Below, one piece after another: positions 31,048 through 50,987 of a stretch of 64,000 nt of DNA. The translations under genes were made by a program, and so were the position numbers. This DNA comes from Dehalococcoidia bacterium (GTDB lineage Bacteria; Chloroflexota; Dehalococcoidia; GIF9; UBA5629): contig JBEKIW010000002.1 in the NCBI GenBank assembly GCA_050011565.1, positions 160,001 to 224,000 of the forward strand, in the 5' to 3' direction. Each line of letters starts with the position of its first letter. Position 1 is the first letter of the stretch. The notes under the pieces were generated by a model, which saw nothing but the letters and a program-made list of their open reading frames with translations, made no database searches and had not been told where the DNA came from.

Positions 31048-31191
31048 TTAAATCAAAAGTTAAAAGCCAAAATTCAAAAATACAAGTAAAATGTAATAAA
31101 TAGTCTCTAGACTGCGGAGATTTTTTCAGATTATGAAGGACGTGATACAATAATCCGGCGCATCATATATTAACTTGAGGAGACGACCGCT

Positions 31192-32274
31192 ATGACTACC
31201 GTTTATGAGAAGCTTCGCGAGAGATTGGATATGTTCCCACAGGGGTTCGCCAAGACGGAGAGCGGGGTGGAGCTGGAAATACTGAAACGCCTGTTTACTC
31301 CGGAAGAAGCGGAAATTATGCTGGGGCTCAAACCCATGCCGGAAAAGCTGGCGGATATTGCCCGGAGGATGGGCAGGGACGAAACCGAACTGGGAGAGAA
31401 ACTGTACGATATGTCCAAGCGGGGACTGCTCATGCGCTGGCAGGCACCCGATAAGGAAATGTACTATTTCCTGATTCCGTGGGCAATCGGTATTTTCGAG
31501 TTCCAGTTGAATAACCTCAACAAGAAAAACGTCGAGCTGTTCGAGAAATTCTACGAAGAAGGCATGGTGCCTTCCTGGAAAAACAGAAAAACGGGCATGG
31601 TCCGGGTTATTCCCGTTCAAAAAGAAATAGAAGGGAAAACCGAGATTCAGCCCTACGAAAGGGTGTCGCAGATTATCGAATCGCATACCAGGTTTGCTGT
31701 GGCTGACTGCATCTGCCGGAAAATAGGCAAAATGCAGGGACACGGCTGCGACAAGCTGATGGAAGCCTGCATGAGCTTCGGGCCGGCGGCGGATTTCTAC
31801 ATCGAGAACGGTATCGGACGGGAGATTACCAAAGAGGAGGCAAAGCAGATACTCGAAAAATCCGAGGAAGCCGGACTGATTCACTGCTCGACAAACAAGG
31901 TGGGCACCAAGACATTTATATGAAATTGCTGCGGCGACTGCTGCGGGGTCCTGCGGCTCATCACCAAATACGATAATCCTGGAATGGTAACCACATCTAA
32001 CTACTATGCCGAAAAAGACGACGATACCTGTAACGACTGTTTTACCTGCGTCGACCGGTGCAATGTGCACGCTATAACCGTTGAAAAAAATGAGGCTACG
32101 GTCATTAGCAGGGAAAAATGCATCGGCTGCGGGCTGTGCGCCTCTACCTGCCCCACGGGGTCGATTACCATGGTTAGCAAATCACCCGCTGAAGCTCCCC
32201 CCATCTTCTCACGCGAAATGGAGATGCTGCAGGCTATGGGGATGGAAAGGGGAAAGAAGTTCCCCTTTGACTAA
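31192..32274 (+). CDS. Putative selenocysteine-containing Fe-S protein (HTH-like N-terminus, C-terminal 2x4Fe-4S), 360 aa, U244
   Basis: ORFs 31192-31923 and 31984-32274 are in frame across TGA 31921-31923, reading FI-U-NCCGDCC; hairpin GCTGCGG-GGTC-CTGCGGC at 31940-31957. Confidence 0.82.
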
Positions 32275-32298
32275 ATTTGCCTTTAATTTTGGTTTCCA

Positions 32299-32628
32299 CC
32301 CTCACCCTGACCCTCTCCCATCAAGGGAGAGGGAAGATTTTTTTTCTGAGAGGGGCTGCGCCCCTCTTAACTCCCTGGGGCGGGATTAAACAAGTTAAAA
32401 GCTAAAGACCCCCCTTTAGTCCCCCTTTTCCAAAGGGGGGATACATCATCAAAGACCAAAGTTAAAAACCAAAAAGACAGCTTCACCCCCACCCTAACCC
32501 TATCCCATTCCCCATATCCCAGCGGGAGTAAATCCTCGCTGGATGCCTGCCCACCCTTCCTCTCGGGGAGAGGAAAAAATAGAACTCTTTTCTCTCGCCC
32601 CTGGAGGGAGAGGGTTAGAGTGAGGGGG
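32299..32628. repeat. Cluster of REP-like hairpin repeats (CCCTCACCCT...GGGAGAGGG family)
   Basis: Units near 32299-32333, 32348-32368, 32409-32442, 32486-32506, 32597-32628; related copy at 43831-43882. Confidence 0.72.
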
Positions 32629-32829
32629 AAACAAATCAAAAGTTAAAAAAGTTTTAGGGGTCACCTGCCCTCAGGTGACCCACCACGCAAATACAAACCA
32701 CGACGATCACCCGTAGGCGGGTGACACGTAGTAATTTCGGCGGGGTGGAAAAAAGAGAGTATTGCTAGGGCCAGACCACATATGTATAATGATAATTACG
32801 TGGGGTGATTCAAAGGTAAGGGAGAAATT

Positions 32830-34195: not shown

Positions 34196-34648
34196 ATGAT
34201 AGAAGTTGGCAGCCGGGCTCCTGACTTCGCACTAAAGGACCAGGATGGCAAATCAGTGAAGCTTCCTTCTTTTAAAGGTAAGAGGGTTCTACTCTCATTC
34301 AGACCGTTGGCCTGGACGCCGGTCTGAAGCGACCAGATGGTGTCTCTGGAAGAGCACTTCGACCAATTCGACAAATTGAATACAGTAGCCCTGGGCATCG
34401 GCGTTGATTCAGCGCCCTCGAACAAGGCGTGGGCAAAATCACTGAACATCGAGAGAACCAGATTACTTGCTGATTTCTGGCCTCAGGGAGAGGTGGCAAG
34501 GCTATATGGCGTGTTCCGGGACAAAGACGGTTTTTCCGAGCGAGCGAACATATTGATTGACGAGAACCAGGTAGTAGTATTTGCCAAGGTATATCCTATC
34601 TCTCAGCTACCGGATATTGAGGAGATAATTAAGTTTTTAAAAGCCTGA
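34196..34648 (+). CDS. Selenocysteine-containing peroxiredoxin (AhpC/TSA family), U44
   Basis: MIEVGSRAPDFALKDQ...PLAWTPV-TGA(34325-34327)-SDQM...; TGA sits at the peroxidatic Cys of PxxxTxxC; hairpin CCAGA-TGGTGTC-TCTGG. Confidence 0.9.
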
Positions 34649-41969: not shown

Positions 41970-42044
41970 TGGTGGCAGCGACTGGATTTGAACCAGTGAC
42001 CAAGGGCTTATGAGTCCCCTGCTCTGCCACTGAGCTACGCTGCC
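41970..42044 (-). tRNA. tRNA with CAT anticodon, probably elongator Met (Ile2 not excluded)
   Basis: Reverse complement GGCAGCGTAGCTCAGTGG...CT-CAT-AA...GGTTCAAATCC...GCCACCA; G2-C71 and C3-G70, no C4-G69. Confidence 0.92.
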
Positions 42045-50648: not shown

Positions 50649-50865
50649 GAATATCCTTTTTTAAACTGTCGACAATATTATCACTAACTTTAATGCCTGG
50701 TCAATTATAAACACAATGTGGACAGACTACCCCGCTATAGAATTTTTTAAAAGTTTTCATTTCAGTTACCTACAACTGCGCGGGAGAAAAAATCATGATA
50801 ACTTGAACCCGTTGAGTGTTGTAAGCCGGAAATCATCATGCTATAATGCCGATAGCTCGATAGCG

Positions 50866-50960
50866 GCTTTCCGAGCCTTTTGCCCTAAAGGAATAGCCAA
50901 GGGCATCGGCCGATAGGGTGCCACTGGAAACGGTGACGCCTCCCATCCTTGGAAAGGAGA
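50866..50960 (+). ncRNA. Moco/Wco RNA motif (riboswitch candidate)
   Basis: TTTCCGAGC...CCTAA...GGGTG.CACTG-GAAA-CGGTG.CGCCTCCC...TTGGAAAGGAG; promoter TTGTAA-N17-TATAAT at 50819-50847; upstream of tupABC. Confidence 0.85.
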
Positions 50961-50987
50961 GCAGAGTTGAAGGGTATCTTTTTTAGA

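Follow-up and report, generated by a model that had tools for sequence, protein, structure and literature searches.

Whether an in-frame TGA ends a gene or encodes an amino acid is the question raised by a locus in the genome of a Dehalococcoidia bacterium (assembly GCA_050011565.1, contig JBEKIW010000002.1). The window analysed here is the 64,000-nucleotide (nt) stretch from 160,001 to 224,000 of that contig; its own numbering is used throughout, and all features lie on its forward strand unless marked otherwise. The TGA at 31921-31923 closes an open reading frame (ORF) at 31192-31923 that encodes 243 amino acids, and the frame then remains open to a TAA at 32272-32274. The in-frame junction of two ORFs through this TGA, as reported in an initial annotation of the window, is present in the sequence. 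With TGA read as selenocysteine (Sec, U), the whole gene (31192..32274) comprises 360 codons plus the TAA, and codon 244 places U244 inside the motif F-I-U-N-C-C-G-D-C-C of a 360-residue protein. We predict, with a probability of about 0.88, that 31192-32274 is one intact gene for a selenoprotein made with SelB and a selenocysteine insertion sequence (SECIS), and infer selenium insertion at residue 244. The UGA at 31921 would be read as Sec by the bacterial route during translation: a hairpin in the RNA, located within the coding sequence at 16-37 nt past the UGA, would recruit SelB together with Sec-tRNA(Sec). Recoding by SelB at this hairpin is well supported.

A UGA at a column that holds cysteine (Cys) in homologues is the standard criterion of selenoprotein searches, according to the BSepDB description (PMC13326102). 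A search of 5.8 billion clustered proteins returned 5401 matches, of which the best 120 are 64-83% identical and about 346-415 residues long. In each of these 120 the TGA column holds Cys, as part of F/x-I-C-N-C-C-G-[CD]-C-C, in line with the I-C-N-C-C motif that had initially been given for the family. Full-length Cys homologues of 356-415 residues cover 96-100% of the gene, and Cys occupies the UGA column in 41/41 other rows of one alignment (A1) and 47/47 of a second (A2). A profile of the middle domain of the protein matched 2981 representative clusters among 1.84 billion proteins, and 149 representatives with at most 50% mutual identity were aligned. Among these, Cys stands at positions 173 and 186 in 149 each, at positions 175, 193, 246, 247 and 251 in 148 each, and at position 244, the Sec column, in 147; position 249 is Cys in 120 and Asp in 26, and position 250 is Cys in 138 and His in 7. 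The TGA therefore occupies one of eight near-invariant Cys positions of the middle domain. Members of the family come from Chloroflexota, Thermodesulfobacteriota, Spirochaetota, Thermoplasmatota and Asgard archaea.

The same codon recurs in close relatives. Orthologues with at least 65% identity are present in 13 of 60 related genomes, with TGA at this codon in six copies from five genomes of the same genus and TGC in seven copies. In metagenomes the motif was found 81 times in 79 loci, as TGA in 21 cases, TGC in 55 and TGT in 5, and two loci are truncated ahead of it; the scan patterns favoured C-N-C-C-G-D-C-C, and these counts are accordingly biased. Identity to the query is 77% or more for every metagenome TGA form. 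A genome collection contributed TGA at five of 80 loci, under titles of Dehalococcoidia, Dehalococcoidales, Chloroflexota or Chloroflexia metagenome-assembled genomes, and Cys at the other 75, mostly from Desulfobacterota. The count of TGA against TGC and TGT that had been proposed as a check finds TGA in five further genomes as well as in the 21 metagenome loci.

Behind the TGA lies a SECIS-like element (31928..31957), recognised by folding, silent-site conservation and comparison with relatives. Bacterial SECIS elements are stem-loops shortly downstream of the UGA that carry a G (GGU) in the apical loop and follow rules of spacing and loop. The 7-base-pair (bp) hairpin with a GGUC loop 24 nt past the TGA, to which the initial annotation had drawn attention, is present as described. 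Its 5' arm at 31940-31946 (GCUGCGG), loop at 31947-31950 (GGUC) and 3' arm at 31951-31957 (CUGCGGC) form seven pairs, two of them G-U. Measured from the A of the TGA, the stem starts at a distance of 16 nt and the loop at 24 nt. A longer alternative hairpin exists because UGCUGCGG occurs twice; here, 31928-31934 and 31936-31939 pair with 31947-31957, and this is the minimum-energy fold.

It is through comparison with relatives that the hairpin rises above chance. In the Sec forms the 34 nt past the TGA are nearly invariant, silent sites included, and fold with energies of -16.3 kcal/mol for the longer and -10.9 kcal/mol for the shorter hairpin. In contrast, the best values among 56 distinct Cys-form metagenome segments are -10.6 kcal/mol (longer) and -8.5 kcal/mol (shorter), with most segments near zero. 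Although many of these segments code for the identical peptide N-C-C-G-D-C-C-G-V-L-R, their silent sites vary freely, and the hairpin is kept in the TGA versions but not in the Cys versions with the same peptide. Codons 245-256 have a silent-site diversity of 0.064 across 16 unique full-length Sec-form genes, versus 0.277 in the rest of the gene. The ten 12-codon windows with the lowest silent diversity all start at codons 236-246 (spanning about codons 236-257), the median window having a value of 0.282. The residues G-V-L-R after the motif are common in Cys paralogues too, and the hairpin seems to have arisen through the choice of silent sites in a sequence that already tended to pair.

The genome encodes the machinery that such an element would serve. 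The genes selD (with its own UGA), selA and selB and a tRNA-SeC (anticodon TCA) are clustered within 6 kb of contig C4; selA, selB and selD score 571.9, 368.2 and 395.9 bits, all above cut-off, and the tRNA-Sec scores 72.1 bits. Further selenoprotein genes were screened for with a hexamer coding-potential model, and 40 of 617 TGA-joined frames were taken to Pfam; the resulting selenoprotein count is therefore a minimum, and the genome may encode many others. Five genes outside the window emerged (loci L156, L176, L178, L162 and L183), encoding an HdrA-like protein (U195), FdhA (U354), a DsbA-like protein (U27, in U-P-W-C), a C_GCAxxG_C_C-glutaredoxin fusion (U24) and SelD (U31).

Another selenoprotein gene, of a known family, lies 2 kb downstream within the window and encodes an AhpC/TSA peroxiredoxin (Prx; 34196-34648, +; Pfam 110 bits). 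Its TGA at 34325-34327 stands at the peroxidatic Cys position (T-P-V-U-S-D-Q) and is followed by a 5-bp hairpin; ORF calling under translation table 11 cuts the gene into pieces of 43 and 103 residues.

Hairpins behind the UGA of these genes share a recognisable form. The apical loop reads GGUCU on a 7-bp stem in FdhA, GGU in the HdrA-like gene (7-bp stem; nt 27-29, counted from the U of the UGA), AGGUG in the DsbA-like gene, UGGUGUC in Prx, CGGGA in SelD and AGUUA in the C_GCAxxG_C_C fusion. GGU is present in the apical loop of four of these six other selenoprotein genes. The shorter hairpin of the gene under study, with GGUC on a 7-bp stem at nt 27-30 from the U of its UGA, fits this local pattern.

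In a quick IQ-TREE tree that ignored the masked Sec column and took its support from the Shimodaira-Hasegawa-like approximate likelihood-ratio test (SH-aLRT), 17 Sec rows and one Cys row (P0002) fall into one clade with a support of 100, nested among Cys orthologues. From this tree we infer one Cys-to-Sec change, within one genus-level clade of Dehalococcoidia-labelled genomes.

Several observations weigh against insertion of Sec by SelB at this UGA. As a single sequence, the element folds at chance level (z = -0.64), with 48 of 200 shuffles folding equally well. The SECIS families of Rfam gave no match, either at the gathering score over the whole window or at E <= 10 over 31850-32050, where only chance-level matches appeared. 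Compensatory base-pair change was seen at none of 12 pairs among 20 unique Sec-form segments. The sole three pairing variants are one-sided, and all keep pairing; two of them cannot discriminate, because each is the only silent change open to the Cys and Asp codons. Support for the structure therefore comes from conservation, and the two alternative hairpins are inseparable. In addition, P0002 is the sole Cys form inside the Sec clade. This protein is 83% identical, reads F-I-C-N-C-C-G-D-C-C-G-V-L-R-L and shares D249 and G-V-L-R-L with the Sec forms; it is either a basal Cys form or a reversion. Its position implies that Sec is dispensable or that Cys has been regained. The distribution of selB adds to these points. 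The gene was found in three of the five further Sec-form genomes, with only a fragment in G012 (84% complete, 7% contaminated) and none in G003 (77% complete). It was found also in four of five Cys-form congeners, and was not found in two Cys-form genomes of another family (99% and 95% complete). Co-occurrence of the TGA form with selB had been suggested as a check, and near-complete genomes lacking selB showed no TGA form; the test is weak because selB is genus-wide, Cys-form genomes included.

Some of these points would suit a UGA read by a standard tRNA (a Cys, Trp or Arg near-cognate) or inefficiently, with the RNA acting as a read-through stimulator or another regulatory element. This explanation needs neither an Rfam SECIS match nor covariation for a SelB-type hairpin, and P0002 indicates that Cys works at the site. 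However, the hairpin has the size, spacing and GGU-type loop found in FdhA, the HdrA-like gene, the DsbA-like gene and Prx of the same genome, the full Sec machinery is present, and a UGA at a Cys column is the signature of Sec/Cys pairs. We regard decoding by a standard tRNA as improbable.

The frame behind the TGA was followed in 21 unique 120-nt Sec-form segments from 25 loci. None of the 21 contains a stop or frameshift, and codons 262-273 vary at silent sites while their residues are kept. Judged from these patterns, the frame behind the UGA is translated, and both sides of the TGA are under purifying selection. The observations bear on a second explanation, in which the TGA is a real stop and the ancestral gene has been split into a 243-residue protein, with the winged helix and half of the Cys-rich domain, and a small ferredoxin starting at ATG 31984. 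ORF calling with table 11 yields exactly these two ORFs, the second being a small ferredoxin of 96 residues. Gene callers cut at the TGA, as the initial annotation had anticipated: 62 of 65 new database clusters matched by the 243-residue fragment stop at ...F-I, and all 62 shortened entries are annotated in this way, the named ones as 'hypothetical protein' or 'RnfB'. The ATG at codon 265 occurs in the window and in 14 of the 21 segments. In the other seven, however, codon 265 is ATA or ATT, and there is thus no conserved restart codon. Moreover, the 20 codons from the TGA to codon 265 never contain a stop or an insertion or deletion, the invariant C246, C247 and C251 are kept, and silent changes with kept residues flank codon 265 on both sides. 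A split would also cut an invariant four-Cys motif in two, in a genome that decodes Sec.

Flanking signals point in the same direction. A promoter-like site (31123..31151; TTTTCA, 17 nt, TACAAT with TG), found by consensus scan, lies about 40 nt upstream of the start codon; the scan is weak evidence, with seven sites versus 2.9 expected in the region. A Shine-Dalgarno-like GAGGAG (31178..31183), read from the sequence, precedes ATG 31192 by 8 nt. A terminator-like hairpin of nine pairs, seven of them G-C, followed by a T run (32311..32345), stands 37 nt after the stop codon, whereas a scan of the forward strand between the TGA and the TAA found no terminator-like site. With a promoter-like site, a ribosome-binding site and a terminator-like hairpin only past the TAA, the transcription unit fits one gene. 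A split gene appears quite unlikely.

A nonsense mutation, a pseudogene, or a sequencing or assembly error has very little to recommend it. The TGA is not unique to this assembly: independent assemblies share it, and the contigs of four out of four other public runs carry 31921-31923 unchanged. Over 31909-31973, the sole difference in those contigs is a silent one at 31926, while the flanks differ at many places. Such conservation, together with purifying selection on both sides of the TGA, contradicts the idea of an error or a decaying gene. One copy does look damaged: in G012 (L039, contig C20), the shared TGA is accompanied by in-frame TGAs upstream, at codons 222 and 230, and a stretch matches in another frame. 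Damage to this copy or faulty assembly is the probable cause.

A TGA at the same column was also seen in a 29%-identical paralogue (L061/L184, G017:C11:7080-8210), in the motif T-I-U-N-C-C-S-C-C-C. A 6-bp hairpin with the loop GGA follows about 30 nt downstream, and the G017 genome has selB. The case is a singleton, as the tandem twin (76% identical) has Cys and five orthologues have Cys or are cut off. It could reflect either a nonsense mutation or a Cys-to-Sec change that happened independently a second time, and is not counted as support.

A genetic code in which TGA is a sense codon throughout the genome, as in codes 4 or 25, has the open frame itself in its favour and nothing more, and is next to impossible to reconcile with a genome that is 99.2% complete by standard marker genes and in which most of the 40 TGA-joined frames are adjacent ordinary genes (PanB|PanC, L18|S5, RibE|RibBA, TrpRS|inositol monophosphatase), the first ending at TGA, so that TGA is an ordinary stop.

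The predicted selenoprotein comprises three regions, and its AlphaFold2 (AF2) model has a predicted local distance difference test (pLDDT) score of 90.6. Residues 21-123 (31252..31560) form a winged-helix domain in this model. VIA-align relates it to MarR/ArsR-type winged helices with Z of 8-9.4, the closest being 2nyx_A (Z 9.4, root-mean-square deviation 2.0, 62 aligned). No MarR or helix-turn-helix Pfam family exceeds its cut-off over this region, HVO_A0114 reaching E 0.041 and 14.1 bits against a cut-off of 27.6.

The Cys-rich middle domain, residues ~165-258 (31684..31965), is defined by Cys invariant in A1 and A2 and has no Pfam match. It holds C173, C175, C186, C193, U244, C246, C247, D249, C250 and C251, that is, the eight near-invariant Cys positions, one Cys/Asp and one Cys/His position. 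Ten ligand-capable positions with adjacent Cys pairs suggest more than one cluster, or an unusual one. Modelled alone (pLDDT 74.6), the domain reaches a best VIA-align Z of 4.2, and Foldseek returned nothing at E <= 1e-3. In the AF2 model of the protein, U244 and C246 lie within a beta strand (242-246), and C173 and C175 just after another strand. C173-x-C175 and U244-x-C246, at strand ends, may resemble the C-P-C and C-H-C motifs of ferredoxin:thioredoxin reductase (FTR), and the C-C-G of the motif presumably recalls the CCG domain of HdrB/GlpC, which binds non-cubane clusters. At the sequence level that domain gave no match, PF02754 not being among the 14 Pfam families at E <= 0.1; at the fold level no solved chain matched the middle domain.

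The C-terminal 2x[4Fe-4S] ferredoxin domain, residues 270-330 (31999..32181), is supported by Pfam, a PDB profile and its fold. C280, C283, C286, C290, C310, C313, C316 and C320 make up two C-x2-C-x2-C-x3-C motifs, all eight Cys being invariant. Residues 276-327 match Fer4_21 with 37.9 bits (cut-off 35) and Fer4 with 35.5 bits (cut-off 21.1), PDB profile matches are confined to residues 270-335, and fold matches reach Z 9-10. This is the only part of the protein recognised by Pfam and NCBIfam. Identification as RnfB failed, with TIGR01944 matching the ferredoxin domain alone, at 32.4 bits (cut-off 68.7), and PF04060 not listed at E <= 0.1. HgcB (NF040864, 34.7 bits versus 99), HdrA (NF040770/HdrA2, 36 bits versus 1100) and a PRK07118-type protein (NF005504, 25.7 bits versus 437) were rejected likewise, with their matches on the ferredoxin domain (in the latter two on this domain only). 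NF005503 is not among the 25 NCBIfam families listed of 77 matched. Searched with a natural Cys homologue, the ESM Atlas gave only '4Fe-4S binding' or 'hypothetical' clusters.

Taken as a selenoprotein, the molecule would have Sec244 as part of a metal or redox centre of the Cys-rich domain, which would receive electrons through the ferredoxin domain. By analogy with related systems, Sec244 may act as a redox-active selenol beside an iron-sulfur cluster, to which we give somewhat less than even odds. More tentatively, it might serve as a direct selenolate ligand of a cluster; that it ligates an unusual iron-sulfur centre in a fold without a solved relative seems rather unlikely. If Sec244 is a ligand, the protein would offer a natural selenium-ligated iron-sulfur cluster and would locate the catalytic site in a large, so far unstudied family of redox proteins from anaerobes. 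Cys-form paralogues often occur in tandem, as two or three copies (L104, L105, L116; G025:C61, G001:C5), and single genomes hold at least 10 paralogues. Such an arrangement is in keeping with a family of enzymes or sensors that has diversified by substrate. The family might instead consist of redox-sensing regulators, because a winged helix is present.

Natural replacement of Cys by Sec is almost confined to redox or metal sites that are critical for function, so that the Sec/Cys pair marks residue 244 for study. The family is large and widespread in anaerobes, with no Pfam model for two thirds of its length and no solved structure, and the protein is a natural experiment that could show the effect of selenium at or beside an iron-sulfur cluster. 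In every public TGA-form copy seen, databases hold a 243-residue fragment in place of the 360-residue selenoprotein. The gene would add to the already rich selenoproteome of Dehalococcoidia, members of which have 46-49 selenoprotein genes according to the BSepDB paper (PMC13326102).

The neighbouring genes form no conserved operon and give no hint of function. Recurring but variable neighbours encode a methyltransferase, a ZIP transporter, an SCP2 protein, a TPR protein, BrkB/YihY and a DUF362-ferredoxin. The intergenic stretch 32275-32700 is rich in short G/C-rich palindromic words (for example at ~32300-32345 and 32480-32640) and has the look of a repeated element; the terminator-like hairpin (32311-32333) is one of these words. 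Elsewhere, the window starts with four tRNA genes in a row (391-703, -) and contains one more tRNA at 41973-42044 (-) and a molybdenum/tungsten cofactor riboswitch at 50857-50975 (+; 66.2 bits).

Among known systems, the closest parallel for the recoding signal is the fdhF/FdhA type of SECIS of E. coli, in which an in-frame UGA is likewise followed by a hairpin in the coding region with GGUC in the apical loop. The apex of the E. coli fdhF SECIS reads GGUC, with the loop at about nt 22-25 from the U of the UGA, and the FdhA gene of the same genome has a 7-bp stem with the loop GGUCU. The present element differs in that its loop begins at nt 27, counting from the U of the UGA, and in that it has no Rfam match, and its protein is unrelated to molybdopterin enzymes.

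At the protein level, the HdrA selenoprotein (CxxU) is likewise an iron-sulfur protein with a ferredoxin domain and Sec in place of a conserved Cys close to clusters. In a study of the M. maripaludis complex, HdrA Sec197 is modelled in a Cys-Sec pair and proposed as an electron relay (PMC13518236). Unlike HdrA, the present protein has no flavin adenine dinucleotide (FAD) or pyridine-nucleotide-disulfide domain, and its motif is U-x-C-C, not C-x-x-U. HgcB, the mercury-methylation ferredoxin (GVGU), resembles it in being of the 2x[4Fe-4S] ferredoxin type and in that a minority of its members, 17 of 266, carry Sec in place of an additional invariant Cys (10.1101/2022.07.06.499078). However, HgcB has ~95 residues with Sec after the ferredoxin domain, whereas the Sec of the present protein belongs to a separate Cys-rich domain upstream.

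Iron-sulfur selenoprotein families in Table 1 of a 2026 review (119 families and subfamilies; PMC13188914) also have Sec within the Cys motif of an iron-sulfur site, and predicted iron-sulfur contacts are noted there for some families. They have no sequence match to our protein and another domain architecture. The nearest entries of the table are the Fe-S cluster domain protein NF005503, HgcB, FTR-like, GlpC-like and HdrA. Almost the whole of that table was covered, all but a few rows, and it shows no family with a winged helix, a Cys-rich domain and a ferredoxin domain and no U-x-C-C motif, which agrees with the initial placement of the protein outside the classical selenoprotein list. No paper describing this selenoprotein family was found in the literature covered, which excludes the BSepDB family table. 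The gene would therefore represent a selenoprotein family that is new, though of the usual bacterial type. Its nearest relatives are the Cys members of the same family, named '4Fe-4S binding protein' or, by one source, misnamed RnfB: set apart by TGC or TGT at the column and by a hairpin that is not kept, they equal the Sec form in length and architecture and are 64-83% identical to it.

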